DNA of 36,920 nucleotides from Spirochaetales bacterium (GTDB lineage: Bacteria > Spirochaetota > Spirochaetia > JAFGDJ01): NCBI GenBank assembly GCA_016932135.1, contig JAFGDJ010000069.1, positions 1-36,920 of the forward strand, read 5' to 3'. Below the pieces are notes generated by a model. It searched no databases. It was not told where the DNA came from and worked only from the letters and a program-made list of their open reading frames with translations. The number at the start of each line of letters is the position of its first letter. Position 1 is the stretch's first letter. Below are positions 18,098 through 34,745 of the stretch, piece after piece. A program made the translations under genes and the position numbers.

Positions 18098-19846
18098 ATG
18101 TTTATACGGGAAGACGTAAAATGGCATATATCAAAAATCGAAGAGAAAATCATCGGGGCCTTTACCGTTCCATTTATGAAGCTGGGGAACGACGCCGATA
18201 TCCGGTACCGTAAGGTTCGCCGGATGAAAGACCTGTGGGTTCCTATGCGGGACGGCGTGCGGCTTTCCGCCGATCTGTATATGCCCGGCGACCTCGAGAA
18301 AGCCGAAACCATCCTTATCCGCATGCCCTACGGAAAACGAGAACCCTACTGCTGGATGCCGGCTATCGGAAGGTTCTGGGCGAAAAGGGGTTATACCTGC
18401 CTGATCCAGGACGTCCGGGGCCGCTTTGCCTCGGAAGGGGAATTCATCCCGTTTATTCATGAAATTGACGATGGTTACGACACTCTGCAGTGGATAACGG
18501 AGCAGCCCTGGAGCAACGGCAAGGTCGGCATTGCCGGAGAATCCTACTACGGTTATACCTCCTGGGCGGCCGCCCTGGCCGGGCATCCGGCATTACTGTG
18601 CGCGGCTCCTTCCACCACCTCCATGGATATCTACAACAACTGGGTGTACAACAACGGTGCCTTCTGCCTGCAGACCATGGGCATGTGGGGCATCTATATG
18701 GACAGCAAAACCTACACCAATGAATATCGGATCGATCTGAACCATTTACCCATCAGGGACATGGACACCAAGGCCGAGACTCCGAGCCGGATCTACCGGC
18801 AGTGGATGGAGCATCCGTACCGGGATGCATACTGGGACCGGATCAACCTGGACCGGCGAGCCGGCGAGGTGAAGATCCCCTGTCTGCATATCGGCGGCTG
18901 GTATGACGTGTTTCTCCGGTCCACCTATGAAGACTGGAAACTGGTATGTGAACAGGCGGGGACGGAGGAAGCGAAGGAAAACCAGTGGCTCCTCTTAGGT
19001 CCCAATGATCATGAGTTCACCACCGATTTCACCCCGAAAGCCGGGATGATCGACCTGGGAAAAGAAGGGATGATGAAACGATGGGATATCATGACCCGTT
19101 TTTTCGACCACTGGTTAAAAGACGAGGACAACGGTTTCGAATCCACCCCTCGGGTTGCCTACTTTATCATCGGAGAAAACCGCTGGGAATCTTCCGACAC
19201 CTGGCCGCCTAAGGGGACGGAGGTTGTTCCCTGGCACCTTTCTTCCGGGGGGCATCTTGTCCGGGGGACGGAGGAACTCACCGATCCGGAGTACGATGAA
19301 TATACCTACGACCCGGCCGACCCGGTGCGATGGAGCGAGGATATCGATCTATGGTATTTTGCCAGGGAACTGAAAGACCGGCGATCCATGGAAACGCGTC
19401 CCGATGTGCTTCTCTATTCAGGTGAACCGCTTCAAAGAAACCTGACCATCACCGGAAATATTAAAGTACTGTTATTTGTCTCATCCGACCGGAAGGACAC
19501 CGACTTTACCGCCGCCCTGACCGATGTTTTTCCCGACGGGTCCTGTCACCTGGTACAGGAAGGAATTCTCCGGGCGAGGTTCAGGGATGGGGACGGAGGT
19601 CCGTTGTTGTTGGAACCGGGAAAGATCTATCCCTTAACAATAGATCTCTGGGCTTCGGCATACACCTTTTTCGCCGGCCACAGGGTACGCTTGGAAGTGT
19701 CCAGCAGTAATTTTTCCCGTTTCGACAGAAACACCAACACGGGAAAGGACCCCCTTCAGGACTCCGATCCCCTGCCGGCCCGGCAGAAGGTGTTCCATAG
19801 CCGGGAATACCCTTCCGTTCTTCTTCTTCCGGTACGAGGGAAATAA
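18098..19846 (+). CDS. CocE/NonD-family hydrolase (S15 X-Pro dipeptidyl-peptidase-like alpha/beta hydrolase)
   Basis: It has an N-terminal alpha/beta fold with RDGVRLSADLYMP, QDVRGRFASEGEF and the nucleophile motif GESYYG, plus a C-terminal beta-sandwich domain. A good SD lies upstream. Confidence 0.85.
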   Translation: MFIREDVKWHISKIEEKIIGAFTVPFMKLGNDADIRYRKVRRMKDLWVPMRDGVRLSADLYMPGDLEKAETILIRMPYGKREPYCWMPAIGRFWAKRGYTCLIQDVRGRFASEGEFIPFIHEIDDGYDTLQWITEQPWSNGKVGIAGESYYGYTSWAAALAGHPALLCAAPSTTSMDIYNNWVYNNGAFCLQTMGMWGIYMDSKTYTNEYRIDLNHLPIRDMDTKAETPSRIYRQWMEHPYRDAYWDRINLDRRAGEVKIPCLHIGGWYDVFLRSTYEDWKLVCEQAGTEEAKENQWLLLGPNDHEFTTDFTPKAGMIDLGKEGMMKRWDIMTRFFDHWLKDEDNGFESTPRVAYFIIGENRWESSDTWPPKGTEVVPWHLSSGGHLVRGTEELTDPEYDEYTYDPADPVRWSEDIDLWYFARELKDRRSMETRPDVLLYSGEPLQRNLTITGNIKVLLFVSSDRKDTDFTAALTDVFPDGSCHLVQEGILRARFRDGDGGPLLLEPGKIYPLTIDLWASAYTFFAGHRVRLEVSSSNFSRFDRNTNTGKDPLQDSDPLPARQKVFHSREYPSVLLLPVRGK

Positions 19847-19848
19847 CC

Positions 19849-19879
19849 CCCCCCTGACTTCCCGGCCGTTGGGGGGCTT
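19849..19879. terminator. C7/G6 hairpin between convergent CocE and the ferritin-like gene
   Basis: CCCCCCC...GGGGGG is followed on the + strand by a T-rich CTTAATTCTCTTTC. The loop is long (~18 nt), so this is a weak candidate. Confidence 0.25.
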
Positions 19880-20333
19880 AATTCTCTTTCAGTATATGCT
19901 CATCGTAGAGAGATTCGAACCTCAGCTTGTGGCCTGCCTCTTCGGAGGCAATGCGCAGAAGAAGCTTCTCCGTGTCGGTTCCGGAAACCCGGGAAGCCAG
20001 ATTCGTATACAGCCGAAAGGAAGCCTCTTCCCGTTTCATAGCCAGAATCAGGATATCCTGGTAATCCATTTCAGCCTCCGGCTTTTCCGGTGTAACCAGG
20101 TACTCACTGATTTTCAGGTCCGTCACCTTTTTCGGCTCCAGGTCCCGGAGTTCCTTTTTCTCCAGACCTTCCAGCACGGTAATATGGCCCATCTCCATGG
20201 CTTCCAGTTCAAAGAGCATAGTCTTCATACTTTTGAAGCCGGCTTTTTCTTGTAATCCCCGGTAAAAGGCTGCCGCCTCTTTTTCCCGCTCAATGGCAAA
20301 GGACAGAATCTCCCGGACTGTGCTATCAGCCAT
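19878..20333 (-). CDS. ferritin-like/rubrerythrin-family diiron four-helix-bundle protein (no rubredoxin domain)
   Basis: It has two E-x-x-H metal-binding motifs (ELEAMEMGH, SEEAGH) about 90 aa apart in a 151-aa helical protein. It sits 29 bp downstream of the large Fe-S flavoprotein and is the last gene of the same-strand block. Confidence 0.7.
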   Translation of the reverse strand: MADSTVREILSFAIEREKEAAAFYRGLQEKAGFKSMKTMLFELEAMEMGHITVLEGLEKKELRDLEPKKVTDLKISEYLVTPEKPEAEMDYQDILILAMKREEASFRLYTNLASRVSGTDTEKLLLRIASEEAGHKLRFESLYDEHILKEN

Positions 20334-20362
20334 ATTGTTCCTTCCTCCCTTTTTTCACCCTT

Positions 20363-23300
20363 TTATAGGAGAAGCGCATTCCGGATCTCCTCCCTGTCCT
20401 GCGCCCCCTGACGCAGGGGAGAACGGCCGGAAGGCTCACTGTATCCCTCGATCCAATACTTCAGGGGAACCGGAATATGAAGATCCACATGGGTGTTGTC
20501 CCCGCCCCATCGGATCACTCTTCGGTTATCGTTGCTTTCAAGATTCCCCCCGACATCAAGAATCAGGTCAAAGTCTTCCATGCCACCGCTATTACCAATT
20601 TCTTCCGGGGATTCTCTTTCTCCCAGGGATTTCAAGAGGTACCAGGAATTCCGGGCGTTCCAGAAAAGAGTCACTCTGATTTTTTGCCAGGTACTGGCTT
20701 CCCCGATGGATTGAATGAGCCGGTTTTCCGTGTCCCGCTCACAGCAGACATGGAGATCCTCCGGATTGATCAAGATGTCCACCATCCGCCGTTCAAACTG
20801 GGCGTACTGCAGAGCATCGTCCAGGGATGATAGGTTCGGGAAGACCCGATCCGCCGTACGCTGAACTGCCGGGCCGTTATCTCCTACAACCCAGAGGGTG
20901 AAATAACCGGCTTTTTTCATCCGGTAGGCTTCGGTGAAGGCAACGTTATTCGAATCGTAGAGGGTTCCCAGAACCAAGGCTGCCCGGCGTTGCGGATCGA
21001 TGCCTGTATCTTCGAAGAAATAGTGGGTCTCCAGATTAAATGGTCTTCGCCCGTTCTTTGTCGACAAACTACTTTCCGGTAAGCCGCCCTTTCCGAGATT
21101 GTTTAACTCTATCCAACTGGGATTGATGTGCTCAAGGCCGATGGGCCTGACCACACAACCAAGTTCCCCCGCTCGAGCAAGAAAATAATCAATAACCTCC
21201 CCGCTCAAGAAAGGAGATATCCGCATAAGGACCTTTTTTGACTCTTTCATATAGGAATCCATCAGTCCGGAGGCTTTCTTCCTCTCCAGGTTTCCATCAG
21301 GGGTCGAGCAAATTCCCTTCCCATTGGATTGATTCTGCAAAATGAAAGTGTTCTGGAACCTGCCTCGTTCACAAAGAATACCGCCGTAGGTATCGAAACG
21401 TTCGGTAATCCGGGTAAAAAGACTTCCGTGAGAACGGTATTCCACCGGGCAGCTGACGGAGCACATAGGGCAGTAACCGGGAGTAACCTCCTCTTCCAAG
21501 GGCACTGTTTTTCCGGAAGGAAATTTTTCCGTCAGGGCACCCACGGGACAGGCGGAGACGCATTGACCGCAGCTTATACAAAGATCCACTTCACCGAAGG
21601 GGCTGCCAAAAGACGGTTCGATATGGGAAGCGAATCCCCGTTTCACATAGCCCAGGACCCCCAGCCCCTGGACCTCCTGACAGATCCGGACGCAACGACC
21701 GCAAAGGATGCACTTGGAGGGATCGCGGACAATATACGGATGGCTCTTATCCACCGGGTGAACTTGAAAGTCACCCACAAAACGATCAATCCGGGCTTCG
21801 TATTCCTGGGCATACTCTTTGAGTTTACATTCATGCACATCCTGACAGCCGCACTCCAGGCAGCGACGGGCTTCGATCAGAGCCTGTTCGTCGGTATACC
21901 CCATTTCGATTTCCGAAAATGACCGCCTCCGGCGCTCTAAGGGAATCTTCGGCATTGTTTGTCGGGGGAGTTTCTCTTCATCCTCCAGATCTTCCGCCGT
22001 TACCGGCCGCAGATCCGATTTTCTCACCAGGAATTCGGCCTTCCGCTCAACCTGCAGACCGGCAAAGAACATTCCGATAGACGCCGCTGCGTGTTTTCCG
22101 CCGGCGATAGCCCGAATGGCAATGTCCGGACCGGTAACCACATCTCCCGCGGCAAAAAGCTTGGGGATCGCCGTCGCTCCGGTTTCCTTGTCACAGACGA
22201 TGTTGCCCCGTTCATCCACCAGGCCTTCCGCTGTTTTTAAGGAACTCGTGTCGGTATACTGCCCGACGGCGGCGATAACCGTGTCCACCTCCCAGGAAAA
22301 ATCAGCTCCTTCCACCGGTACAGGACGCCGCCTGCCTGAAGGATCTGGTTCCCCCAGTTCCATGGTGATCAAATGCAGTTCCAGAGGATTGTTTCTCCCC
22401 TTGGTGATTTTCGAAGGAGCCGCCAGATAGGTTATACGGATTCCTTCCTCCAGGGCTTCTTCAATCTCCATATCGGAGGCAGGCATTTCCTCCCTGCTCC
22501 GTCGATAGAAAATCTGCACATCATCGGCTCCCAGTCGCAAGGAAGTTCTGGCGGCATCAATAGCGGTATTCCCCCCGCCAATAACGGCGACCTTTCGGCC
22601 GATCTTCGGATGGTTTCCCTCCGCCACACCCCGTAGCATGTCGATACCCGGCAGGACACCCGGCAGATCCTCCCCGGCGATCCGCATCTCCCGGCTTTGC
22701 CAGGCTCCCAGGGCGAGAAGAACAGCATCGTTTTCTTTTAGCAAGGTTTCAAGTTCCAGCTCCGTCCCCAGACACTTACCGCAGATTAAAGAAACACCGA
22801 GATCGGTAATAAGGGCAATTTCTTTATCCAGAACATCCTGAGGCAGCCTATAATCCGGTATACCGTACCTGAGCATACCGCCGGCTTTCTCCTGGGCTTC
22901 ATAGACCGTAACCTCCGTCCCCGCTTGTTTTAAATAGTACGCCGCCGATAAGCCGGCCGGTCCGCCGCCGATGACAGCTACCTTCTTGCCGTTCGAAGGA
23001 GCGACTTCCGGCTTCCAGGGATTGCCGGAGAACAAGTCAATGTCGGCGATATACCGCTTGAGATAATCGATCCCCACCGGTTCATCTACTATATTCCGCC
23101 GGCATTCATCCTCACAGGGACGGGGGCAAACCCGACCGCAGACCGATGGAAAGGGGTTGTTCTTTTTCACCAGCTTCAGGGCTTCGGCGTTTTTACCATA
23201 GGCAATCAGCCCCACATAACCCTGCACGTCGATATTGGATGGACAAGCCAGGGTGCAGGGAGCCTTACAGTCGCCGTAATGGTTGGAGAGGATCAGTTCA

Positions 23301-23584
23301 AAAGCCAGCTTCCTGGCCTGGCGGACCTCTTCATCATCCGTTACAATCTTCATCCCCGGTCTTACCTGGGTAGCGCAGGAGGGGACGAATCCCTTAGCTC
23401 CTTCCACCTTTACCAGACAGACCCAACAGGACCCATAGGGTTCCAGGCGACGGTCATCACAAAGAGTCGGTATATGGAGGCCCTGTTCCCGGGCTGCCTG
23501 GAGGATAGTCACTCCCTCGAAAACCGCACATTCTTTCCCGTTGATATGTACCTGAATTAATTTTCTCCCGCCGTTGGTCATCAT
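20363..23584 (-). CDS. mosaic Fe-S flavoprotein: a 2Fe-2S ferredoxin N-domain, an NfnB/GltD-like NAD(P)H-FAD module, a 2x[4Fe-4S] ferredoxin domain and a degenerate molybdopterin-oxidoreductase-like C-domain (StnC-like large subunit)
   Basis: aa 1-85 form a plant-type 2Fe-2S domain (CDDRRLEPYGSCWVCLV...SCAT). aa ~100-165 hold GltD/NfnB N-terminal clusters (GDCKAPCTLACP; FPSVCGRVCPRPCEDEC). Two Rossmann motifs (KKVAVIGGGPAGLSAAYYL; RKVAVIGGGNTAIDAART) and AAGDVVTGP indicate FAD and NAD(P)H binding. A CLECGC/HEC segment precedes two CxxCxxCxxxCP ferredoxin motifs. A MopB-type motif (CPMCSVSCP...GGILCERGRF) follows, and after it about 400 aa with no catalytic hydrogenase or Mo signatures. Its start ATG overlaps the upstream gene's stop (ATGATGA). 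Confidence 0.85.
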   Translation of the reverse strand: MMTNGGRKLIQVHINGKECAVFEGVTILQAAREQGLHIPTLCDDRRLEPYGSCWVCLVKVEGAKGFVPSCATQVRPGMKIVTDDEEVRQARKLAFELILSNHYGDCKAPCTLACPSNIDVQGYVGLIAYGKNAEALKLVKKNNPFPSVCGRVCPRPCEDECRRNIVDEPVGIDYLKRYIADIDLFSGNPWKPEVAPSNGKKVAVIGGGPAGLSAAYYLKQAGTEVTVYEAQEKAGGMLRYGIPDYRLPQDVLDKEIALITDLGVSLICGKCLGTELELETLLKENDAVLLALGAWQSREMRIAGEDLPGVLPGIDMLRGVAEGNHPKIGRKVAVIGGGNTAIDAARTSLRLGADDVQIFYRRSREEMPASDMEIEEALEEGIRITYLAAPSKITKGRNNPLELHLITMELGEPDPSGRRRPVPVEGADFSWEVDTVIAAVGQYTDTSSLKTAEGLVDERGNIVCDKETGATAIPKLFAAGDVVTGPDIAIRAIAGGKHAAASIGMFFAGLQVERKAEFLVRKSDLRPVTAEDLEDEEKLPRQTMPKIPLERRRRSFSEIEMGYTDEQALIEARRCLECGCQDVHECKLKEYAQEYEARIDRFVGDFQVHPVDKSHPYIVRDPSKCILCGRCVRICQEVQGLGVLGYVKRGFASHIEPSFGSPFGEVDLCISCGQCVSACPVGALTEKFPSGKTVPLEEEVTPGYCPMCSVSCPVEYRSHGSLFTRITERFDTYGGILCERGRFQNTFILQNQSNGKGICSTPDGNLERKKASGLMDSYMKESKKVLMRISPFLSGEVIDYFLARAGELGCVVRPIGLEHINPSWIELNNLGKGGLPESSLSTKNGRRPFNLETHYFFEDTGIDPQRRAALVLGTLYDSNNVAFTEAYRMKKAGYFTLWVVGDNGPAVQRTADRVFPNLSSLDDALQYAQFERRMVDILINPEDLHVCCERDTENRLIQSIGEASTWQKIRVTLFWNARNSWYLLKSLGERESPEEIGNSGGMEDFDLILDVGGNLESNDNRRVIRWGGDNTHVDLHIPVPLKYWIEGYSEPSGRSPLRQGAQDREEIRNALLL

Positions 23585-25356
23585 GCCGGCACCCCCGTAG
23601 CGATTTTTACCGCATGGAACCGGCAGCCTTCATAACAAAGACCACACTGAATACAGAGATCCTGATCTATGGAGTGTGGTTTTTTCGCATCACCGCTGGC
23701 CGCGTGGGTGGGACAGAACCTCGCGCAAATGGTGCAGCCTCGGCACTCGTTCGGATCGATGACATAACGCACCAGGGCCTTACACTGCATAGCCGGACAT
23801 TCATGCCGTTCAATGTGGGCGAGGTATTCATCCCGGAAGTACTTCAATGTTGTCAGTACCGGGTTTGGAGCGGTCTGTCCCAAACCGCAGAGGGAAGAAA
23901 CCTTTACCCGCCGGGCCAGGTCTTCCAATTCATCCAGATCTTCCAGCTTTCCCTTCCCTTGGGTAATCCGCTGGAGGATTTCCATCATTCTTTTTGTGCC
24001 GATTCTGCAAAAGGTGCATTTGCCGCAGGATTCGCTCTGAATAAAGCTGAGGAAATAGCGGGCTACATCCACCATGCAGGTGGTTTCATCCATGACCACC
24101 ATTCCCCCGGAACCCATAATAGCTCCCGTGGCATTGATGGATTCATAGTCCACCGGTGTATCCAGCAATTCCTCGGGGATACAGCCTCCGGAGGGACCTC
24201 CCAACTGGACGGCTTTAAACTGTTTGTCTTCCTGGATTCCGCCTCCGATGTCAAAGATAATTTCCCGCAAGGTCATACCCATGGGAACCTCCACCATGCC
24301 ACCGTACTTGATCTTCCCGGCCAGGGAAAAAACCTTGGTACCTTTGCTCTTTTCTGTTCCGATAGAGGCAAATTTTTTCGCTCCCATGTTTAAAATCCTG
24401 GGGACATTGGCCAGGGTTTCCACATTGTTGATGTTTGTGGGATATCCCCAGAGACCTTTCTCCGCTGGATAAGGGGGACGGAGGCGCGGCATCCCTCTTT
24501 TTCCCTCGATGGAGGCCATCATGGCGGTTTCCTCACCGCACACAAAGGCACCGGCCCCCTCTTTTATATGGATAAAAAAGGAAAAGCCAGTTCCAAGGAT
24601 CCGATTGCCCAGGAAATTGCGTTCTTCCGCCTGGCTGAGGGCCTTATTGAGGCGCTTGATGGCTAAAGGATACTCAGCCCGAACATAGATATACCCTTCC
24701 CCCGCGCCTATGGCGTAGGCTGCAATGATCATTCCTTCAATAACCGAATGGGGGTCCCCCTCCAGTACCGATCGGTCCATAAACGCCCCGGGGTCACCTT
24801 CGTCGGCGTTACACACCATATACTTTCTTTTAGAAGAAGAAGCCGCGATAAAGCTCCATTTCATGCCGGTCGGGAAACCCGCTCCCCCCCGGCCTCGCAG
24901 TCCGGAGGTTTTAATCTCTTCCACCACCTGCGCGGGAGTCATGGACTGAAGCACTCTTTTTAAGGCTTCGTATCCTCCCGTGTCGAGATACTCCACGATG
25001 GATTCCGGATCGATAATTCCTGAATTAGACAGAACAACCTTTCTTTGCCTGGAAAGATAGGGATAATCTTCAGGAAAGGCGTTTTCCTGATTAAAAACCT
25101 TCTCATTACATTCACTGGCAATGAAATCGGTAATTTTCTTTTCACTTACTTCACCGAAGAGTTTTTTCTGCCCATTGTCATATCGAACTTCTATAATCGG
25201 TTCTTTATGACAGGCACCAATACATCCGGTTTCACCAACCTTGATATCCATTTTTCCCTGAGCAATGGCAGCGAGGAGAGAATCGTATACTCCTTTCGCT
25301 CCGGCGGCAATCCCGCAGGATCCCATACCTACAACAATTTCGGTAACCCTACTCAT
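23581..25356 (-). CDS. NuoF/HydB/HndC-like NADH-binding FMN Fe-S flavoprotein (bifurcating-complex beta subunit type)
   Basis: An extra N-terminal thioredoxin-like 2Fe-2S domain is followed by the NuoF core (GLRGRGGAGFPTGMKW; FMN site GAGAFVCGEETAMMASIEG; ESCGKCTFCRIG). A C-terminal 2x[4Fe-4S] ferredoxin (CRGCTICARFCP, CIQCGLCYEGC) follows. This extended architecture is typical of HydB/HndC/StnB. Confidence 0.9.
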   Translation of the reverse strand: MSRVTEIVVGMGSCGIAAGAKGVYDSLLAAIAQGKMDIKVGETGCIGACHKEPIIEVRYDNGQKKLFGEVSEKKITDFIASECNEKVFNQENAFPEDYPYLSRQRKVVLSNSGIIDPESIVEYLDTGGYEALKRVLQSMTPAQVVEEIKTSGLRGRGGAGFPTGMKWSFIAASSSKRKYMVCNADEGDPGAFMDRSVLEGDPHSVIEGMIIAAYAIGAGEGYIYVRAEYPLAIKRLNKALSQAEERNFLGNRILGTGFSFFIHIKEGAGAFVCGEETAMMASIEGKRGMPRLRPPYPAEKGLWGYPTNINNVETLANVPRILNMGAKKFASIGTEKSKGTKVFSLAGKIKYGGMVEVPMGMTLREIIFDIGGGIQEDKQFKAVQLGGPSGGCIPEELLDTPVDYESINATGAIMGSGGMVVMDETTCMVDVARYFLSFIQSESCGKCTFCRIGTKRMMEILQRITQGKGKLEDLDELEDLARRVKVSSLCGLGQTAPNPVLTTLKYFRDEYLAHIERHECPAMQCKALVRYVIDPNECRGCTICARFCPTHAASGDAKKPHSIDQDLCIQCGLCYEGCRFHAVKIATGVPA

Positions 25357-25804
25357 CCCGTTTCTTCCTTATGGTTTTCAGCAGTTTCGACCAATTGAGT
25401 CTCCCTTGTACTTCGTTGTCGATCATCACAACGGGAGCCAGAGAGCAGCAGCCAAGACAGGAAACGCTCTCCACAGTAAAGATTCCGTCCTCCGTGGTTT
25501 GCCCTGGTTCAATACCCAATTCTGTTTTTAAGGCTACGTCAATGGCCGCCGCACCATTCACATGGCAGGCCGTGCCATGACATACCTTGATAGTGTACCT
25601 TCCTTGCGGTTGGAATCTGAACTGGGTATAGAAGGTAGCGACTCCGTAGATCTCCGCAGGAGAGGAACCGGTAGCCCGGGCGATCTCTTCCATGGCTTCT
25701 ATCGGAAGGTAGCCATAAATATCCTGCGTCGCCTGGAAAAGGGGAATAATATTACCCTTCCTCTCCCGCCATTCCTTCAGAAGTTTATTGAATCGTTTAT
25801 CCAT
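25349..25804 (-). CDS. NuoE/HydC/HndA-like thioredoxin-fold [2Fe-2S] protein
   Basis: 151 aa with CHGTAC...CLGCC cluster ligands and the NuoE fold. There is an 8-bp overlap with the NuoF-like gene. Confidence 0.9.
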   Translation of the reverse strand: MDKRFNKLLKEWRERKGNIIPLFQATQDIYGYLPIEAMEEIARATGSSPAEIYGVATFYTQFRFQPQGRYTIKVCHGTACHVNGAAAIDVALKTELGIEPGQTTEDGIFTVESVSCLGCCSLAPVVMIDNEVQGRLNWSKLLKTIRKKRDE

Positions 25805-25971
25805 AGCGCATCCTTCTAGAGAAAAGGATAATGTTGGTCCAATGCGAAAAGCCTAGCTGCTCAACTGTTGCCAAATAAAAGAAGTAAGTTCTAACAATAA
25901 ACCGATATGGGGAATTATGGGAAGATGAAAAATACTTACAGAAGCGTTTTTTTTAAAGATGACCAAAAAAA

Positions 25972-26337: not shown

Positions 26338-26356
26338 AGCTTCTCTCCTTTCCTGG

Positions 26357-27613
26357 TTACAGGATACCCGTTTCAAGGGTATTCCCCCTTGAGGATTCAA
26401 GAGATGGGATTTCTTCCCTATCCAAGGTAAAACTGACCATTTCAGAAGGTTGTACATGCCGAAGTTTCTTCCGTATAACCTCCCGGCCTTCGATTTTTAC
26501 CACCAGTTCGGCACCATTTTTAACAACTAAGGGCCGAAGGTAAAACCTGTTGTCGCCATCGGGGTTATACATATTAGGTAGGACATACTTCACATTGGCT
26601 CCGGAGACCGTTCTGTATTGACGGCCCGGGGCTACTCCTTTGAGATAATGACAGACTGCTTCTCCACAACGCTGAGATTCCTCAGTAACGAAATCCACCA
26701 GGTCATGCACATGAAGCACATTTCCACAGGCGAAAATCCCTTCCACCGATGTCATAAGACGAGAATCTACCAGAGCCCCACCGGTTTCAGGATTAAGATC
26801 AACACCGGCTTTTTTTGAGATTTCATTGTCCGGGACCAGGCCTACGGAAAGAAGCAGGGTGTCGCAGTCCAGATCAAAGGAAGCTCTGTTCCCACCTTCC
26901 TCCGTCCCCACCGGAGATACCCGGACTCCCTCTACCCGTTCTTTTCCCCAAATTTTCGAGACTACATGGGAAAGATGCAGAGGAATATTGAAATCCGTGA
27001 GACATTGCACGATATTTCGGGTCAGCCCGGCTGGATAGGGTTGAATTTCCACTACTCCAAGTACCTCCGTCCCCACCCAGGTCATGCGGCGGGCCATAAT
27101 GAGACCAATATCTCCGGAACCGACGATGACTATCTTTTTGCCGGGGATATAACCGTCAATATTAACCAGCCTTTGGGCCAGACCGGCGGTAAAGATCCCC
27201 GAAGGCCTGGTGCCGGGGGTACCGATATTCCCGCGATTCCGCTCCCGGCAGCCCATGGCCAGCACAATGGAACGACAGGAAAAATGGAGCAGCCCATAGA
27301 CGGATGAGTACCCGTAAAAGCTCTTCATCGATCCTGTATCTTCTATATCCATTACCGTCGTCTCAAGATAGACATCCAGGCCTTTATCCTTCACCGCTTG
27401 AATAAACCGTTCGGCATATTCAGGCCCCGTCAATTCCTCCTTAAAGTGGTGGAGCCCGAACCCGTTGTGGATGCATTGATTGAGGATGCCACCCAAGGCT
27501 GTCTCGCGTTCCACTATAGCGCAGGAATAACCCGCTTCGGCGATTCTGCACGCGGCGGCCATACCAGCCGATCCTCCGCCGATAATGACGGAGTCATATT
27601 TTTTCTCCGTCAT
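26357..27613 (-). CDS. NAD(P)/FAD-dependent oxidoreductase (pyridine nucleotide-disulfide oxidoreductase family; HcnB/OoxA-like middle subunit)
   Basis: There are two dinucleotide-binding motifs (SVIIGGGSAGMAAACRIAE; KIVIVGSGDIGLIMARRM) and a C-terminal part with ACGNVLHVHDLVD. The gene overlaps the glpA-like gene by 4 bp. Confidence 0.85.
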   Translation of the reverse strand: MTEKKYDSVIIGGGSAGMAAACRIAEAGYSCAIVERETALGGILNQCIHNGFGLHHFKEELTGPEYAERFIQAVKDKGLDVYLETTVMDIEDTGSMKSFYGYSSVYGLLHFSCRSIVLAMGCRERNRGNIGTPGTRPSGIFTAGLAQRLVNIDGYIPGKKIVIVGSGDIGLIMARRMTWVGTEVLGVVEIQPYPAGLTRNIVQCLTDFNIPLHLSHVVSKIWGKERVEGVRVSPVGTEEGGNRASFDLDCDTLLLSVGLVPDNEISKKAGVDLNPETGGALVDSRLMTSVEGIFACGNVLHVHDLVDFVTEESQRCGEAVCHYLKGVAPGRQYRTVSGANVKYVLPNMYNPDGDNRFYLRPLVVKNGAELVVKIEGREVIRKKLRHVQPSEMVSFTLDREEIPSLESSRGNTLETGIL

Positions 27614-29082
27614 TCCTTTCCTCCGGTTCTCGAGAAAATTTGAAATTCTCCAACCCGGCCGGTAATTTCCCAGGACCCGGCACCTCGCTTTGTTATTTCA
27701 TCCACGGAAAGACCGGTCTCCCTCTGAATTATTTTTAGTATTTTATAGGTACAAAACCCACCCTGGCAGCGACCCATCTGGGCACGGGTATAAAATTTGA
27801 TACCATCTAAGGTTGTATGGCCTTTTTTTATGGCTTCTACTATTTCAGCCTCTGAAATTGATTCACAGCGGCAAACAATATTTCCATAAGACGGATTTTT
27901 TTCTATCAGTTTTTCCGCTGTAAAGGGATCAACTTCCCTAATTCTGGGAAGCGGATCGATAGCGGGGTCGTAATTCGGCTTTTCTTCAAGAATCAATCCT
28001 GCTTTTTTCAGGAGATCCTTTACATATTCGCCAATGGCCGGAGCAGCAGTGAGCCCCGGAGATTGGATGCCCGCCGCCTGAACAAGTTTGGGGCACTTCG
28101 TCGATATGGCGATATAAAAATCATTGCCTTCAAGGGCGGGTCTCAGCCCCACAAAAGCCGTAATAATATCCCGCTCTGAAACCGAAGGCACCAATCGTCT
28201 GGCGGAATAGAAAACCTTTTCAAAGTTATCCCCCGTGGTTGCCAGATCCTCCTTATCCTCAATTTCCTCTGCCGTAGGGCCGACCATCGTTGTTCCTTCC
28301 ACTGTCGGAATAACCAACATTCCCTTGGAGTTTGGACTGGGAACAGGAAAGATCACTCGGCTCGTAAAAGCCGCGGCATTCCGATCCATCAGGTATTCCT
28401 CTCCTTTTCTCGGGGAAATGGTAAACTCCTCCGCCTTAAAAAGTTTCGATATCTCATCAGCCCGGAGCCCGGCGGCATTCACCGCATATCTACTGGTAAC
28501 AGTTTCACCATTAACGGAAGAAATATGGAATCTTTCTCCCGTTATATCTACTCCATTAACCTTAAACTTGGTTTTCAGTTCTACGCCATTCTTTACAGCA
28601 GACTCGACTAAGGAAAAAACAAGACGGTAGGGTTCGACTATACCTCCGGAGGGTGCATGGAGCCCACCAACCACATCCCGGTTGAGTTTAGGCTCTAAAG
28701 AAAGCATCCTTTCCCGGTTACAGAGTTCGATACCGATGCTTCCGTTCTGCACACCCTGCATATAGAGCTTTTCTACAGTTTTCATTTCCTCGAAGGAAAG
28801 AGCTGCCACGAGAATACCGCATCGACGAAAGGGGAAATGCAGGTCCCTCTGCAGGGCATCGAACATTATATTCCCCTGGATTTCCAAGCGAGACTTCAAC
28901 GTGGATGCACCATGATGAAAACCACCGTGAATAATCCCGGAATTGGCTTTGGATACTCCGAAGGAGACGTCACATTCTTTCTCTAAAAGAACAACCCGCA
29001 GCTTGTATGCGGAAAGGCGCCTCGCAATAGAAGCCCCGGTGACTCCCGCACCGATTATGGCGACATCATAAACACTACTCAT
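27610..29082 (-). CDS. glpA: FAD-dependent glycerol-3-phosphate dehydrogenase-like oxidoreductase (GlpA/GlpO family) with C-terminal BFD-like [2Fe-2S] domain
   Basis: It has a DAO-type N-terminus (DVAIIGAGVTGASIARRL...GIIHGGFHH) and GlpA/GlpO-like central blocks. A C-terminal BFD-like Cys motif is present (CRCESISEAEI...GRCQGGFC). Glycerol kinase lies nearby on the same strand. An SD (GGAGGTG) precedes ATG 29082. Confidence 0.8.
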   Translation of the reverse strand: MSSVYDVAIIGAGVTGASIARRLSAYKLRVVLLEKECDVSFGVSKANSGIIHGGFHHGASTLKSRLEIQGNIMFDALQRDLHFPFRRCGILVAALSFEEMKTVEKLYMQGVQNGSIGIELCNRERMLSLEPKLNRDVVGGLHAPSGGIVEPYRLVFSLVESAVKNGVELKTKFKVNGVDITGERFHISSVNGETVTSRYAVNAAGLRADEISKLFKAEEFTISPRKGEEYLMDRNAAAFTSRVIFPVPSPNSKGMLVIPTVEGTTMVGPTAEEIEDKEDLATTGDNFEKVFYSARRLVPSVSERDIITAFVGLRPALEGNDFYIAISTKCPKLVQAAGIQSPGLTAAPAIGEYVKDLLKKAGLILEEKPNYDPAIDPLPRIREVDPFTAEKLIEKNPSYGNIVCRCESISEAEIVEAIKKGHTTLDGIKFYTRAQMGRCQGGFCTYKILKIIQRETGLSVDEITKRGAGSWEITGRVGEFQIFSRTGGKE

Positions 29083-29328
29083 GTTATAAGAGCACCTCCG
29101 TCCCCAAAGAATGCTTTCTCAGCAAAGGCATCTTTAAAAGAGTAAAACGATTTTATCCGGATATTATGGGTAAGGCAAGCCTACTACATAAAATGATTCA
29201 GACTAAAAGTTAAGAAAGTATTTTAAAGATTAAACAATGGTCCAATTTATCATGGAGCTAATTCTATAGAGAAAGAGACTTACATCACTTCTTCAGTCAG
29301 GAAAAAGAAAAAGTCGTTAAAATCATAA

Positions 29329-29841
29329 TTACTGATTAACATCTAATAAAAAAAGACCATATTGTGAAATCTGATCAGGTGGTTCTAAAAGCTCATATAC
29401 ATTTTCCTGGATAAATCTTATTCCATTATATGTATATTCGAAACAATATTGTACTAAACCAGCTCGAACGGGATTTAGGGCGATATATAAGAAAGTATTA
29501 AGTAACTGATAATAACCTTCAGTAATCGTACTTCTGAACCGATCATACCACACATGCCCATGAATCTCATATATTTTATTAAATTGAATTGCAAAAACAC
29601 TAAGTATCCATTGCATTATTTTAGAAAGGCTTTCCTTTTTACCCGGTCTAATCATGAGATGGACATGGTTACTCATGATGCAAAAATTTCTAATTTTAAA
29701 ATCATACTTTTTTTTCGCTCTTTGAAGCACGTGAAGGAAAAGCTCCTTCACGTGATCCGACTCTAAGATAAACTCCTGCCTATTAGCTCGCGCAGTAACG
29801 TGATACTCTGCGCCTGGCATTGTTCGTCTCGGGTATCTCAT
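29329..29841 (-). CDS. REP-associated tyrosine transposase-like protein (RAYT, IS200/IS605 Y1 HuH family, COG1943)
   Basis: Signature blocks are present: MPGAEYHVTARANRQEFIL (PGxxYHVTxRxN), an HuH motif SNHVHLMI, GHVWYDRF, and YIALNPVRAGLV, which matches the TnpA_REP C-terminus. I preferred the ATG at 29841 (MRYPRR) to 29973, which would overlap the divergent MMPL start. The local GC is low. Confidence 0.8.
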   Translation of the reverse strand: MRYPRRTMPGAEYHVTARANRQEFILESDHVKELFLHVLQRAKKKYDFKIRNFCIMSNHVHLMIRPGKKESLSKIMQWILSVFAIQFNKIYEIHGHVWYDRFRSTITEGYYQLLNTFLYIALNPVRAGLVQYCFEYTYNGIRFIQENVYELLEPPDQISQYGLFLLDVNQ

Positions 29842-29954
29842 ACTGGATATATACGTTGTTATAAGGCTGTTTGCTTCAAAAATAATAAATTTCGATATGT
29901 AATCCTCCGTCCCCCTAATAGACAGCTTCTTTACTTTTCTGTTACAAAAGAAAT

Positions 29955-32291
29955 ATGGCCATGGATAAAGCAAGACATTCTATTTTTCAATTTTCTTCAA
30001 ATCATCCAAAGCTTATTATTATAATCACCTTGCTACTAACGGTCTTTTTCGCCTTTTTTGCCCTTCGTATTAATATTAATGCTGATTATGCCAGCCTCCT
30101 GCCGGAAGACACCCTGGTAAATCAGCAAATAAAAGAGTTCAGTGGCGATAAACCTGAATCGGAACTCTTTGTCCTGGCAATAAAAGGGGAAAACCTCTTT
30201 ACAAAAACGATTCTATCTAGTTTAAACGATACTATTAATACCTTGGGGGACCTCCCGGAAGTTCAATCTGTCATTTCACCCTTCAATTTCGTCATCTTTG
30301 AACGATCCCCCAGCGGGAGGCTGATCATTGGGAAAACTTTTAATAAATCAGATTCTTTGGGGACGGAGGAAGGAGTTACAGCCTTTACTTCCAGATTGTT
30401 TGACTCCTCCTTCGCCGAGAACCTGGTAGTCTCTAAAGATCGTAAAATGCTCAATGCCTTCTTTTTCCTGGAACGCAGTGATGAGTATGGTGCCTTCCTT
30501 TCGGAGGTGAATAAAGTATCTAAAAACCTTTCCGAGATCGGAGTTTCCGTTCATACCAGCGGTCTGGTTGTTTTGAACGAAAGAACCCGCTTTTATATCA
30601 CCCGGGATGTCTCGATTCTAATCATTCTGGCAATAATGATTGTCATCGCGTTCTACTTTCTTACTTTTCGTACCGGTAAAGCGGTATTCATGCCAATTTT
30701 CGTAGTACTCTTCGGTACCGTTTGGTCCATAGGGTTTATGAGCCTCATGAACTACTCTTTAACCCTCATCAGCATTGTTGCTCCGCCTTTAATTCTTATC
30801 TTTGGGAATGAATACGCTATCTACGTCATGAGTGAATATTACCGCCTTGTAGGACATCATAACGAACACTCTGCTTTCATGGGGACGGAGGTTATACCTA
30901 CCACTACAAAAAACGTCACCAAACCTATCATTCTCGCCTTTATTACCACAGTCATTGGGTTTTTAAGCCTCTATGTCACGGACATAAAACAAACCCAGGA
31001 GTTTGCCCTGGTTGCCAGTTTCGGTTCTCTATCCTGCGGGGTTATCTCTCTCTTCTTTCTGCCGGCTCTTCTGTCATTGGCACCCCTTGGCGAGAAAAAA
31101 GATGCGTCTCTAAGGGGATACAATCCTGTAATTAAAAGGCTATCCGCTTTAGCATCAAACCACCCTCGCGCTGTTCTGCTTGTTATGCCTGTTTTTATTC
31201 TAGCCTTTGCCTTTTCCCTCCAATTCCTTCAGTTCAATACCGATTCAATCAATTATTTTCCTAAGAAGGATCCGGCCATTAAGGACATGTATGTGCTGAC
31301 CGAAGCAATTGGAGGGTTCGATGAAATAAACGTTACCTTTCTTGCCCCCGAAGGTACTAAAGGGTACTTCAACGACCCAATATTATTAGAAAAGCTTTTA
31401 AAACTCGAGAAGGATCTGAAAGCTCATCCGGATGTGTGCTATGCCCTGTCTTTCCCCTCCTATCTTGAAGAGATCCATAGGGTTATGGGGAGTCCTCCGG
31501 ATACTCAGTTCTCCCGGGGTCTTGTCCTTCTGCTTACACGGCTGCTTAAAGCAGCCGCAGCCGATGAAAGCATGGGCGGGGCTCTGGATATCCTCTTTAA
31601 CGAAGATTTTACCCGTCTTACCCTGAACATGAGGATTTATAATAGTACAACCGGTCACTTTATAGACGAATATCGATTCAGGGAGTTTCTCTCCTTTCTG
31701 AAAGACACCTTAAAGGAACATGGTTTTCAAGAGGATGATGCCGTTATCTGGGGAGAGATCATGCGCAATCTTCATCTGGCGGACTCCCTCCGGGGTTATC
31801 TGCTGATATCGATGGTGATATCCCTCGGGTTAATCCTTATTATTACTTCCGTCACGTTTCGTTCAGTTCTCTACGGCCTGTACGCGGTCCTCCCTTTAGC
31901 CCTGGGTCTAATGCTCAATTTTGTCCTGATGGCCCTCTTCAAGATACCCCTGGATATGACTACCATTATGGTCTCGAATGTTACCATCGGTGTGGGTATA
32001 GATAACGCGTTTTACCTGGTGGTGCAGTACCGCAGATCACTGCAAAACAACCATAAATCCTTCTCTGTTTTGATTCATGAAACCCTGGAGGTCATTCTGC
32101 GGCCCACGGTACTGTCGACTCTTTCCATTGCCCTGGGATTGATGGTTTTTCTCCTGGCGGCTTTCAAACCTATTGTTTATTTCGGTATGCTGGTCATTTT
32201 TTCTCTCACCGCCACGGCGGCCTGTACATTAATTGTGCTTCCGGCGATATTGTATTTCGACTCAATAAAAAGAAAGGTTACGCCTAAATAA
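29955..32291 (+). CDS. MMPL/RND-superfamily exporter (COG1033-like, two 6-TM bundles each with a large extracytoplasmic loop)
   Basis: 778 aa. A TM helix and ~170-aa loop are followed by 5 TM; a second TM and loop are followed by 5 more TM. It has an SSD-like arrangement (GIDNAFYLVVQY). The gene has low GC. Confidence 0.8.
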   Translation: MAMDKARHSIFQFSSNHPKLIIIITLLLTVFFAFFALRININADYASLLPEDTLVNQQIKEFSGDKPESELFVLAIKGENLFTKTILSSLNDTINTLGDLPEVQSVISPFNFVIFERSPSGRLIIGKTFNKSDSLGTEEGVTAFTSRLFDSSFAENLVVSKDRKMLNAFFFLERSDEYGAFLSEVNKVSKNLSEIGVSVHTSGLVVLNERTRFYITRDVSILIILAIMIVIAFYFLTFRTGKAVFMPIFVVLFGTVWSIGFMSLMNYSLTLISIVAPPLILIFGNEYAIYVMSEYYRLVGHHNEHSAFMGTEVIPTTTKNVTKPIILAFITTVIGFLSLYVTDIKQTQEFALVASFGSLSCGVISLFFLPALLSLAPLGEKKDASLRGYNPVIKRLSALASNHPRAVLLVMPVFILAFAFSLQFLQFNTDSINYFPKKDPAIKDMYVLTEAIGGFDEINVTFLAPEGTKGYFNDPILLEKLLKLEKDLKAHPDVCYALSFPSYLEEIHRVMGSPPDTQFSRGLVLLLTRLLKAAAADESMGGALDILFNEDFTRLTLNMRIYNSTTGHFIDEYRFREFLSFLKDTLKEHGFQEDDAVIWGEIMRNLHLADSLRGYLLISMVISLGLILIITSVTFRSVLYGLYAVLPLALGLMLNFVLMALFKIPLDMTTIMVSNVTIGVGIDNAFYLVVQYRRSLQNNHKSFSVLIHETLEVILRPTVLSTLSIALGLMVFLLAAFKPIVYFGMLVIFSLTATAACTLIVLPAILYFDSIKRKVTPK

Positions 32292-32302
32292 AAATCACAT
32301 TT

Positions 32303-33013
32303 TTATTTTTTTCTATACTCCGGGAACATCTTTTTTGCTTCTTCTGAGAGTTTATATATCCGTTGTAACAACTTGTCCGCCAGAGATTGGCATTCGTTAA
32401 AAGATGATGTGTCTGTAAAACTGTCTTTAATAGACAGCGGCTCGCCGAAAACTACGCCATAAGGTGCCCTAAAACGGGGAATGGGAGCAATATCAAAATA
32501 TTTACGCCCTTGATAATTATAATTGACCCGTTGCTGCTTCACCTTATCCTGAGGAATCCATACTCCCACAGGAACAATAGGAACATTTGCTTCTAACGCC
32601 AGACGGATCACCCCTTTTTTCCCTCGCACATCCTCATCAGGACTTGTCCTACCCCCTTCGGGAGATATTAACACCGAACGGCCCATATTCAGGATCTGAA
32701 GCGCATCATGAATCGATTCCTCAACCCTGCTTTTATCAATATTGAACAATTTGATCTGATTTGCTGTTGAAAAAATAAACCTGGGCAAAGGAAATGACCA
32801 TATTTGTTCTTCCACCATCACTGATAAATACCGCGTCGCACGATGAATTAAAAGGGGAAAGGCATCCCAGACGGTAGGATGATTGACTGCAAAAATTCGG
32901 GGTCCTTCCGGTAAGGGATGAGTAAACCGATATCTTAGCTTCAGATACATTCTCATGTATGCCGAGAGAAAAATGCCCCAGAAACCGTACCACCAGTTAG
33001 AATACATCTTCAT
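32303..33013 (-). CDS. plsC: lysophospholipid (1-acyl-sn-glycerol-3-phosphate) acyltransferase, PlsC/AGPAT family
   Basis: All the acyltransferase motifs are present: NHPTVWD (HX4D), SPEGGRT (block III) and VPIVPVG (block IV). The gene has low GC. Confidence 0.8.
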   Translation of the reverse strand: MKMYSNWWYGFWGIFLSAYMRMYLKLRYRFTHPLPEGPRIFAVNHPTVWDAFPLLIHRATRYLSVMVEEQIWSFPLPRFIFSTANQIKLFNIDKSRVEESIHDALQILNMGRSVLISPEGGRTSPDEDVRGKKGVIRLALEANVPIVPVGVWIPQDKVKQQRVNYNYQGRKYFDIAPIPRFRAPYGVVFGEPLSIKDSFTDTSSFNECQSLADKLLQRIYKLSEEAKKMFPEYRKK

Positions 33014-33166
33014 AGTTAAAACCCTAATTTTTCCTTGCTATTGTAGAAAAATTATAAAAGAACCTCAACCCGCTATCGCTCTTAACCTTATATCCAGTTC
33101 GATAAGAACCATATACACTAGTCTACTATAACGATAGAATAAAGGGGTAAACTTTAACCACTAAGA

Positions 33167-34681
33167 CTACTCGGAAACCCACCCCATCGCCCGCTCTACC
33201 GCTTTATTCCAAAGGGACAGTTTCTCTTCCCGGATCTCCTTGCTCATGAAGGAAGTCCAGTGTTTATCCTCCTCCCAGTGGCGGGATAGTTCCTCCAGAT
33301 CTTTCCAGAAGCCCACGGTCAGCCCGGCGGCGTAAGCGGCTCCCAAAGCTGTGGTTTCGGTAACCTTGGGGCGGATTACCGGGATATCCAGGATATCCGC
33401 CTGGAACTGCATAAGAAGCTCGTTTACCACCATACCGCCGTCCACTTTCATTCCCCGGGAAACGATACCGGAGTCCTTTTCCATAGCCTGGACGATTTCC
33501 CGGGTTTGAAAGGCCGTGGCTTCCAGTACCGCCCGGGCGACGTGACCCGCCTTGGCGTAACCGGTAAGGCCGGTGATAACCCCCCGGGCGTCGCTTCGCC
33601 AATGGGGAGCGAAAAGACCTGAAAAAGCAGGGACGAAATAGACCCCCCCCGAATCTTCCACCGAAGAAGCCAGGGTTTCGATCTCCGACGACGACTGTAT
33701 AAGCCCCATATTGTCTCTCAGCCACTGTACCAACGATCCGGCTACGGCAATGGAGCCTTCCAGGGCGTAAACGACTTCCTCCGTCCCCCGGCGGTAGGCT
33801 ACCGTGGTCAGGAGCCCGTATTTGGAATGTACCAGGTCGGTCCCGGTATTCTGCAGTAAGAAGCATCCGGTACCGTAGGTGTTCTTGGATGATCCCGGTT
33901 CAAAACAGGCTTGTCCGAAGAGAGCGGCCTGCTGATCCCCCAGGATACCCGCCACCGGCACCTCCGTCCCCAAGGGACCGGCTTTATCGGTGTATCCGTA
34001 GGGTTCGGTGGGGACGGAGGATAGTATTTCCGGCAGAATCTGCCGGGGAACACGGAATACTTCCAGAAGTTCATCGTCCCAGGCGAGGGTTTTCAGGTCC
34101 ATCAACATGGTCCGGGAAGCGTTGGTCACATCGATGCCGTGCACACCCCCCTTCGGACCTCCGGTAAGGTTCCACAGGAGCCATGAGTCGATGGTACCAA
34201 AGAGGACATCGCCTTTTTCAGCGGATCTACGTAATCCTTCCACGTTATCCAGGAGCCAGGCGATCTTGGAGGCGGAAAAGTAGGTGGCCAGGGGCAACCC
34301 GGTCTTATCGCGGAAACGGTTCGCCCCTCCGTCGGCCGTCAGGCGGTTGATCATCTCCGTTGTCCGGGTATCCTGCCAGACCAGAGCCCGGGCGCAGGGT
34401 TTGCCGGTACGGCGGTCCCAGAGGACGGTGGTCTCCCGCTGGTTTGTTATTCCCAAGGCGGCCAGTTGTCCGGCCGATATCCCCGACTTCTGCAGGGTCT
34501 CCCGGATTACCCGGGAGGTGTTGTTTATAATCTCTTCCGGGTCATGCTCGACCCAGCCTGGCTTGGGGTAATACTGCTTATGTTCCACTTGAGTCCAGGA
34601 TGCAGGACTTCCGGTTTCATCGAAAAGAATAAATCTGGTGCTGGTAGTTCCCTGATCCAGGGCTCCGATATACTGTCGCAT
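33167..34681 (-). CDS. glpK: glycerol kinase
   Basis: FGGY-family hallmarks run along its full length ([15 protein letters not shown]; [11 protein letters not shown]; [19 protein letters not shown]). An SD (GGAGAAATACG) precedes ATG 34681. Confidence 0.95.
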
Positions 34682-34707
34682 CGTATTTCTCCAATTGTTG
34701 TTTTGAG

Positions 34708-34740
34708 CTATTATAGGTCTTTCCGGGAAACTTGTATACT
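34708..34740 (-). promoter_or_regulatory. candidate sigma70 promoter for glpK
   Basis: On the minus strand, a -10 TATAAT (complement of 34710-34715) and a -35 TATACA (complement of 34733-34738) are separated by a 17-nt spacer. They lie about 30 nt upstream of the glpK start. Confidence 0.4.
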
Positions 34741-34745
34741 TTTTT

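Follow-up and report, generated by a model that had tools for sequence, protein, structure and literature searches.

Introduction

Why should one 11-nucleotide word, GGGGACGGAGG, recur letter for letter among the genes of a spirochaete, and what keeps its copies exact? The question is raised by a contig of 36,920 bp from a Spirochaetales bacterium (JAFGDJ010000069.1 of assembly GCA_016932135.1), hereafter called the window, in which the word had been noticed from the letters alone in what is referred to below as the original prediction. The answer favoured here, at a probability of about 0.72, is that the word is the cognate sequence of a putative Y1/HUH single-strand endonuclease of the RAYT type (RAYT stands for REP-associated tyrosine transposase, and REP for repetitive extragenic palindrome), which is encoded in the midst of the copies, at 29329-29841 on the minus strand. 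Enzyme and word would then be related to the REP/RAYT systems and to the TIRYT genes ('TIRtron').

RAYTs are among the most widespread domesticated transposases, and we know of no established role for them in the cell. By published descriptions, no repeat family is associated with the largest RAYT group (group 1, subclass 2.1, the TIRYTs).

A short word kept exact

The window holds 17 exact copies of the word, nine on the plus strand and eight on the minus strand, where dinucleotide shuffles predict 0.04 and not one of 100 shuffles exceeded a single copy. Sixteen copies lie within 18958-34020, at about 1.06 per kb, and the remaining one is at 451; at that local density, the probability of at most one copy in the first 18.5 kb is about 6e-8. 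The over-representation and the confinement to the second half had both been reported in the original prediction and are borne out, as are its two near matches (Table 1), and all of its copies were found again, with a single start corrected from 33777 to 33778. The word is sharply exact, because a search of the window that allowed one mismatch returned 19 matches in total, namely the 17 exact copies and only two others (at 1637 and 22759), and shuffled sequences give 1.76 matches in total. For the exact 10-mer core, the one-mismatch class is likewise at the level of chance (4 against 4.6 expected).

By k-mer tables, the enrichment coincides precisely with the 11-mer; T is weakly preferred ahead of it, and A or T behind it. 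Across its 17 window copies the word is not self-complementary, lacks GTAG and has no conserved flanking sequence. A more extended repeat unit, such as a miniature inverted-repeat transposable element, a REP or a conversion tract, was considered and rejected, since nothing is conserved beyond the 11-mer and the flanks are no more similar to one another than those of frame-matched controls. A G-quadruplex or another intrinsic structure was rejected by inspection, since a sister variant of the word, GGGGACAGAGC, has no G-tracts. No Rfam family was found in the window.

Nor is the word an artefact of this record, because a separate Logan assembly (SRR13394437, L001) matches the window over 24776-36920 at 99.98% identity and reproduces the motif copies; this independent assembly and the orthologs described below exclude a planted sequence or an assembly artefact.

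A RAYT-like gene bracketed by the word

Within the cluster of copies lies a gene for a small protein with the HUH and tyrosine motifs of the Y1 family (Table 1). The ORF (open reading frame) as listed, 29329-29973(-), matches the Pfam family Y1_Tnp (PF01797) at 8e-17. Its start is placed at M45, because homologues begin with MRKPR, and the gene so trimmed, which begins at 29841, scores 81.1 bits against the NCBIfam model NF047646, 'REP-associated tyrosine transposase', for which the cut-off is 80. Residues H59, H61, Y119 and N123 are invariant in the alignment of homologues. When a profile of the family was compared with solved structures, the best relative was Escherichia coli TnpAREP (4ER8, E=1.9e-11); a phmmer search of the PDB with the single RAYT sequence gave no match.

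The word brackets this gene, with one copy 63 nt before the ATG and another 224 nt after the stop codon, both on the strand of the gene. A perfect inverted repeat of 18 nt, composed of 29095-29112 (CCTCCGTCCCCAAAGAAT) and 30352-30369 (ATTCTTTGGGGACGGAGG), brackets it as well, the right arm lying inside the ORF of an MMPL transporter; the 7 nt by which the repeat extends beyond the word are of borderline significance relative to frame-matched controls (p about 0.05). Among the candidates of the original prediction was a word bound by some nucleic-acid-binding protein, and the evidence supports that candidate, although the protein itself, encoded inside the cluster, had been missed.

The word and its RAYT in other genomes

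The link was approached from the side of the protein by scanning JGI metagenome contigs with an alignment of three spirochaete RAYTs, which gave 80 loci whose RAYTs are 46-63% identical to that of the window. Nearly all of these loci carry [AG]GGGAC[AG]GAG[CG] 54-200 nt upstream of the gene and on its strand, and many also have a same-strand copy 35-224 nt downstream; in the clade of the window, the two nearest flanking copies are direct and not inverted. Nothing besides the word is conserved in the upstream regions of the 80 loci, and no neighbouring gene accompanies RAYT in them beyond local synteny. By inspection, the word looks to be placed just upstream of AT-rich, promoter-like sequence.

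The variant of the word tracks the RAYT lineage. Loci with a RAYT at least about 52% identical to that of the window mostly use ...ACGGAGG or ...ACGGAGC, and more distant loci use GGGGACAGAGC or AGGGACAGAGC, with ...ACAGAGG in a few. Each locus is enriched in its own variant, with about 0.5-2.5 copies per kb that occupy every frame and either strand and extend to non-coding DNA, and the other variants are absent over the +/-10 kb fetched. The own variant occurs 27 times in 11 kb at locus L185, 32 times in 20 kb at L189, 25 times in 20 kb at L155 and 17 times in 20 kb at L160, with an expectation of at most 0.2 in these four loci.

One JGI contig (Ga0209164_1000148, 223 kb, GC 25-29%) carries two RAYT paralogues about 97 kb apart (L124 and L164), each near a different variant of the word; there, the GC-rich 11-mer is found 5 + 5 times in 20 kb of DNA with 25% GC.

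A second sample started from the motif, for which one genome per GTDB species was scanned for two copies of the word 13-43 nt apart. At least 120 blocks of 8 kb were obtained from many phyla, often several from the same genome, and the same core is present in at least eight phyla; the taxa among the matches listed are Spirochaetes, Pseudohongiella and other Gammaproteobacteria, Eggerthellaceae, Coriobacteriia, Lachnospiraceae, a Metabacillus isolate, Acidobacteriota, Elusimicrobia and Myxococcales. In these genomes the core stands mostly in non-coding hairpins, for example ATGGGGACGGAGGAGCTTGCTCCTCCGTCCCCAT, or in tandem arrays that repeat every 18-44 nt, the flanks of the hairpin and array copies are specific to each genome, and hairpins arise only where two copies sit inverted.

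Among the matches listed, a homologue of the window RAYT is found in 13 of 120 blocks, where chance would place well under one, a rough estimate made from the number of RAYT copies per genome with no computed baseline. Seven of the 13 have a same-strand copy 24-62 nt upstream of the ORF, in one case with a single mismatch, and an opposite-strand copy just past the stop codon; inverted flanking copies of this kind accompany gamma-proteobacterial, acidobacterial, Elusimicrobia and Eggerthellaceae homologues.

The periods of the tandem arrays are 18, 19, 24, 31-33 and 44 nt, some of them in frame, and the window has no such arrays. Array sites are found in L084 (1806-1870 and 6901-6968), L089 (3968-4050), L100 (5030-5133 and 6837-6999) and L008 (796-894), and in L070 an array downstream of RAYT encodes (GTEV)n as the end of the RAYT ORF taken from stop to stop.

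Origin and persistence of the copies

How the copies came to stand inside genes can be read from alignments with relatives. GlpK alignments are ungapped at both sense copies, which occupy variable residues: GPLGTEVPV of the window corresponds to GPFG[A/G/R]E[V/I]P of relatives, and RRGTEEVV to R[I/K]G[D/S/N]xxA[V/M]. In a glpK ortholog whose identity is 79% in amino acids and 75.5% in nucleotides, two of the three glpK copies are exact, including the antisense one, and the third has 10 of 11 bases, though adjacent synonymous sites differ; an ortholog at 71% has none of the three. A comparison of nucleotide-level with amino-acid-level conservation in relatives had been proposed as a check in the original prediction.

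The glpK copies at 33961-33971 and 34010-34020 are inverted and 38 nt apart, with the potential for an 11-bp stem, and this pair is exact in the ortholog of L122 (at 1654 and 1703), which is 75% identical at the nucleotide level.

A syntenic relative (L204; ENA ERZ21831104 ctg91167l) is 71-73% identical over window positions 18143-29067 and has the word at one of eight alignable sites, with no indel at seven of the eight and a gapped alignment at the eighth (26899). An origin by insertion was rejected on these alignments, that is, on GlpK and the seven ungapped sites of L204. No RAYT adjoins the DAO gene of this relative. Compared with the window, its Peptidase_S15 and oxidoreductase genes are split, the former into two pieces, and its DAO is joined to Pyr_redox, probably owing to frameshift errors of long-read assembly.

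Nine syntenic loci, 70-78% identical, carry RAYT at the syntenic position. In 198 of 334 ordered comparisons of their aligned copies (59%) the copies were identical, against 7% for control 11-mers, a contrast that is large even if the comparisons are not phylogenetically independent; in 60 more comparisons they differ at one base, often by the A/G that position 1 permits. The ratio of exact 10-mer cores to versions with one mismatch is about 2-8 to 1 in ten loci.

Since the alignments are ungapped at all these sites but one, the copies are conserved and exact and their flanks are no more alike than controls, the unit is the bare word, made by substitution and kept exact at orthologous positions across some 25% of nucleotide divergence. 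As far as the sequences compared go, the repeated unit is a non-palindromic 10-11-mer of the pattern given above and not a hairpin, and the alignments show its intragenic copies to have arisen by point substitution at tolerant residues.

A putative enzyme-word partnership

If the word is the cognate sequence of RAYT, the HUH/Tyr core would recognise it sequence-specifically on single-stranded DNA; the C-terminal helix-turn-helix (HTH) of other family members would not be needed for this, because the clade that lacks it keeps the word. By analogy with TnpA of the IS200/IS605 insertion sequences (IS) and with TnpAREP, the enzyme would probably nick and rejoin the word on single-stranded DNA, and this activity may underlie the persistence of exact copies. 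Persistence could come about through selection for a distributed use of the sites at the level of the host or, alternatively, through imperfect or near-cognate copies being harmful while the enzyme is present.

A broader and decidedly more tentative proposal is that a domesticated Y1/HUH family, spread across phyla, maintains and possibly writes a 10-11-nt 'genome word' that colonises coding sequence by substitution and is kept exact across genera. It would amount to a REPIN-like partnership of enzyme and repeat with no transposable unit, which reshapes local protein sequence, and in which nicking and rejoining of single-stranded DNA would either penalise imperfect copies, in an addiction-like manner, or bias repair toward the word.

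Several points weigh against the assignment of the word to RAYT. Its binding or cutting by the enzyme is deduced from sequence comparison, and causation could run in the opposite direction, with an IS-like RAYT inserting beside a pre-existing word. The substrates known for RAYTs are GTAG-headed hairpins, and the word has neither feature; REPs are extragenic, whereas 14 of the 17 word copies are intragenic. Around the RAYTs of related loci, 118 copies are found at 0.3-5 kb and 75 at 5-10 kb, a difference of 1.7-fold only, and a heterogeneous one, as some flanks drop to zero copies and others do not, and the loci are patchy. The first 18.9 kb of the window hold one copy though they are not compositionally foreign, their genes resembling the word-rich genes in GC and in GC3 (GC content at third codon positions), which is unexplained if the word is maintained genome-wide. 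Finally, some high-GC actinomycete matches in the motif-first sample are probably unrelated tandem coding repeats.

As a cause of the confinement to 18958-34020, a cloud of copies around the RAYT gene is weakly supported, and that the first half of the window is foreign DNA is not supported; clustering around RAYT genes, a marking of older resident DNA or some other variable may account for it.

Relation to known RAYT systems

In the description of Di Nocera et al. (2013, PMC3733652), RAYT-like genes called 'TIRYT' have on either side inverted repeats that are not hairpins (terminal inverted repeats, TIRs) and have GGGGWSAS in common; in a few species, TIR families are 'moderately abundant'. 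Most TIRYTs were placed by Quentin et al. (2018, PMC6006769) in subclass 2.1 of TnpAY1, which has a median length of 238 aa, the HUH motif NHVH or NH[YF]H, the Tyr motif YIELNP or Y[IV]HLNP and a C-terminal HTH, and for which no REP-like sequence was found. Subclass 2.1 is RAYT group 1 of Bertels et al. (PMC5581495), whose flanking 16-mers have only about 12 copies in the genome.

With the TIRYTs, the system described here shares a single RAYT-like Y1/HUH gene flanked by short non-hairpin repeats without GTAG. The TIRYT core GGGGWSAS is matched at 8 of 8 positions by GGGGACAG of the sister lineages and at 7 of 8 by GGGGACGG of the window, the NHVH and Y-x-x-L-N-P motifs of the window protein fit class 2/subclass 2.1, and gamma-proteobacterial and Eggerthellaceae homologues that have the same 11-mer are about 230-260 aa long, some of them with a C-terminal HTH like that of the subclass. 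The differences concern repeat and protein alike. TIRs are described as flanking features, whereas here a bare 10-11-mer occurs about once per kb, mostly inside genes and by substitution, with copies conserved at orthologous positions. The window protein, at 170 aa (relatives, 155-170 aa), is without the C-terminal domain, stops shortly after the Tyr motif and has 'WY' where the subclass has W[EQ]/FQ. In the window's clade, moreover, the flanking copies are direct, and the 18-nt inverted pair is present but of borderline significance.

The REP/REPIN-RAYT systems, such as E. coli TnpAREP and the Pseudomonas REPINs, are also alike in several respects: the Y1/HUH gene passes the NCBIfam REP_Tyr_transpos cut-off and has 4ER8 as its best solved relative, RAYT is flanked by an over-represented repeat (in the window, in seven motif-first loci and in most of the 80 protein-first loci), the repeat sequence co-evolves with its RAYT, and one exact sequence dominates, with few mutants. 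Since RAYT is syntenic and the copies are conserved in the nine related loci, the system appears to be long-lived and vertically inherited, in the manner of REP/RAYT; the window's own RAYT gene sits in a low-GC island. Unlike a REP, the word has no palindrome, hairpin or GT[AG]G head and is not extragenic. Known intragenic REPs are in-frame insertions of 20-30 aa, whereas the word copies are substitutions that leave the length unchanged, and the core of the word is shared across phyla, whereas REP families are species-specific. From these comparisons of sequence, the system would be a variant of the REP/RAYT-TIRYT kind that lacks two defining features of REPs, the GTAG-headed palindrome and the extragenic location.

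A literal text search of the literature for the word and its variants returned irrelevant eukaryotic primers only, and of the literature searched on TIRYT, TIRtron and TnpAY1 only PMC3733652 and PMC6006769 were relevant. A bare 10-11-mer at about one copy per kb, mostly intragenic copies derived by substitution, conservation at orthologous positions and co-variation of word and RAYT across phyla were not found in the literature searched.

A word that functions without RAYT

Short words at such densities are familiar from natural transformation. The DNA uptake sequences (DUS) of Neisseria and the uptake signal sequences (USS) of Pasteurellaceae are 10-12-mers that occur about once per kb on both strands, with exact copies far outnumbering decayed ones. 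The rival explanation that survives best, though it is judged unlikely, draws on this likeness: the word would be an uptake-like or Chi-like 'self' word, established by biased uptake, repair or selection and functioning independently of RAYT, which would be an IS200-like element that targets it. Some IS elements do target REPs. In agreement with this explanation, exact copies of the word far outnumber one-mismatch versions, intragenic copies of USS and DUS stand in tolerated frames and shift the composition of peptides, as Findlay and Redfield reportedly found in 2009 and as the word does here, inverted pairs form hairpins in intergenic DNA of other genomes in the manner of DUS terminators, and the positions of copies are conserved between relatives. 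The patchy distribution, too, would be expected if recently acquired DNA lacks the word.

This likeness goes only so far, as the word is tied to a Y1/HUH gene with which it co-varies, its core is shared by at least eight phyla, unlike uptake and Chi words, each of which is specific to a lineage, and it is patchy at the scale of 10-20 kb. No link to competence genes was seen, and no test was aimed at such a link. The behaviour of RAYT is that of a resident gene, not of an active IS, because it is syntenic in genomes that are 70-78% identical, and the low-GC island of the window has the word at full density. A replication-linked skew of the kind seen for Chi or KOPS (FtsK orienting polar sequences) is removed because the strand of the copies follows the orientation of genes and flips several times within 15 kb. 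A replichore bias, for which the original prediction had proposed a test, is therefore not seen within these 15 kb, and its suggestion of an uptake or recombination-hotspot word is disfavoured by the many phyla, the co-variation with the RAYT family and the lack of replication skew.

Coding frame and the level of the signal

The connection with RAYT leaves the strong coding bias of the window copies to be accounted for. Thirteen of the 17 read xxG GGG ACG GAG Gxx on the sense strand of an ORF, that is, x-G-T-E-[E/V/D], and one of these 13, at 29904, actually lies upstream of the true start of its gene; the other four comprise one sense copy in another frame (GDGG), two antisense copies and one intergenic copy. 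An mRNA-level signal, such as an internal Shine-Dalgarno-like (GGAGG) site of ribosome pausing or another translational signal, would agree with a word that ends in GGAGG and with the 14 of 16 genic window copies that are sense, 12-13 of them in one frame.

Such a signal is nevertheless very improbable, because the variant of the sister lineages, GGGGACAGAGC, has no GGAGG and is present at the same or higher density, and because the copies of related loci are spread over frames and strands. Genic copies in those loci occupy all six frames on both strands, and about one fifth of copies are non-coding; in the syntenic GGGGACAGAGC group 36 copies are sense and 41 are antisense, in all frames, and loci with the variant of the window are about 62% sense, GTE being merely the commonest class. 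Many copies elsewhere stand in non-coding hairpins or arrays, and the antisense copies in glpK and nuoF are as exact as the others, one of them being conserved in the ortholog.

The bias toward the coding strand and the GTE frame, as originally reported, is real in the window and not general to the system, and the pause sites suggested along with it do not survive the comparison with GGGGACAGAGC. That the copy at 29095 serves as the Shine-Dalgarno sequence of the glpA-like gene is doubtful as well, since 12 nt separate the end of its GGAGG from the ATG. In antisense, the word encodes proline whichever of the three frames is read (PPSP, xSVP and LRP), and GTE can be read as a benign tripeptide suited to surface loops; the bias is for that reason ascribed to a filtering for peptides that are tolerated, not to a function in mRNA.

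That GTE itself is favoured, and its preferred codons happen to spell the word, is scarcely credible even if GTE is the commonest tripeptide of the window ORFs (17 against 3.4 expected), as GGGACGGAG (GGG-ACG-GAG) encodes 14 of the 17 GTE tripeptides where about 2% would be expected from codon usage, the wobble base ahead of the triplet and the base behind it are fixed too, exact copies also stand between genes, in antisense and in another frame, relatives have A, R, D or G at the T position in GlpK, and shuffling of synonymous codons within each gene leaves 0.25 +/- 0.5 copies, against 15 observed in the coding set used. Because of this excess over codon usage and over the synonymous shuffle, the signal is taken to act on nucleotides and to drag the protein sequence along. 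The word overrides codon choice and even amino-acid choice. A constraint stronger than protein coding needs, and a signal in nucleic acid and not in peptide, had been claimed in the original prediction, which named codon shuffling as the check; both claims stand, and the excess persists under that check.

Layout of the window

The positions of all copies and of the RAYT gene are collected in Table 1. The stretch 29100-33100 has a low GC content (35-46%, against about 53%) and contains RAYT, an MMPL/sterol-sensing transporter (29955-32291) and an acyltransferase (32303-33013); RAYT is counted as part of this low-GC sequence because of its own GC content. The stretch splits glpK (33167-34681) from the glpA-like DAO, Pyr_redox and DUF1667 genes (25972-29082). 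Though it has the look of an insertion into a glycerol-utilisation cluster, the density of the word in it is full. GC3 declines gene by gene toward RAYT over 18098-29082, from 0.67 in Peptidase_S15 to 0.46 in DAO, and is back at 0.68 in glpK, on the other side of the low-GC stretch. Two window ORFs, 8881-11031 (716 aa) and 14-538 (174 aa), have no Pfam match.

Table 1. Copies of the word, near copies and the RAYT-like gene in the window
Feature	Position	Strand	Context
Word	451-461	+	Sense, GTE frame; ORF 14-538; sole copy of the first half
Near copy GGGGACGGAAG	1637-1647	+	GTE frame; at chance level
Word	18958-18968	+	Peptidase_S15/CocE gene, sense, GTE frame; absent in L204, no indel
Word	19213-19223	+	Peptidase_S15, sense, GTE frame; the only one of eight alignable sites exact in L204
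Word	19264-19274	+	Peptidase_S15, sense, GTE frame
Word	19589-19599	+	Peptidase_S15, sense, other frame (GDGG)
Near copy GGGGACGGAGC	22759-22769	-	GTE frame; variant used by other RAYT lineages
Word	22912-22922	-	Fer2/Pyr_redox oxidoreductase gene, sense, GTE frame
Word	24474-24484	+	Antisense to NuoF-like gene
Word	26142-26152	-	DUF1667 gene, sense, GTE frame
Word	26899-26909	-	Pyr_redox_2 gene, sense, GTE frame
Word	27064-27074	-	Pyr_redox_2 gene, sense, GTE frame
Word	29095-29105	-	Intergenic; 224 nt downstream of RAYT stop, same strand; 12 nt before ATG of DAO/glpA-like gene
RAYT-like Y1/HUH gene	29329-29841	-	170 aa; HUH motif NHVH, Tyr motif YIALNP; 35% GC
Word	29904-29914	-	63 nt upstream of RAYT ATG, same strand; divergent RAYT/MMPL intergenic region
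Word	30359-30369	+	Inside MMPL gene (SLGTEEG); right arm of 18-nt inverted repeat
Word	30881-30891	+	MMPL gene, sense, GTE frame
Word	33778-33788	-	glpK (RRGTEEV), stretch of variable residues; 10/11 bases in 79% ortholog
Word	33961-33971	-	glpK (PLGTEVP); exact in 79% ortholog though adjacent synonymous sites differ
Word	34010-34020	+	Antisense in glpK; exact in 79% ortholog

Significance

This locus and about 200 related loci indicate that the group 1/subclass 2.1 branch of RAYTs has a cognate repeat after all, which was overlooked owing to its length of only 10-11 nt, its lack of a hairpin and its largely intragenic location; searches for 16-mers, palindromes or extragenic repeats would miss such a word. 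If the link between word and enzyme is true, RAYT enzymes would gain a defined and testable DNA substrate, and analyses of annotation, codon usage and horizontal gene transfer in affected genomes would need to take a practical warning from it. A selfish or symbiotic word would then be able to overwrite codon and amino-acid choice in housekeeping genes such as glpK, and the partnership would offer a system for asking how short words stay exact over long evolution without natural transformation.

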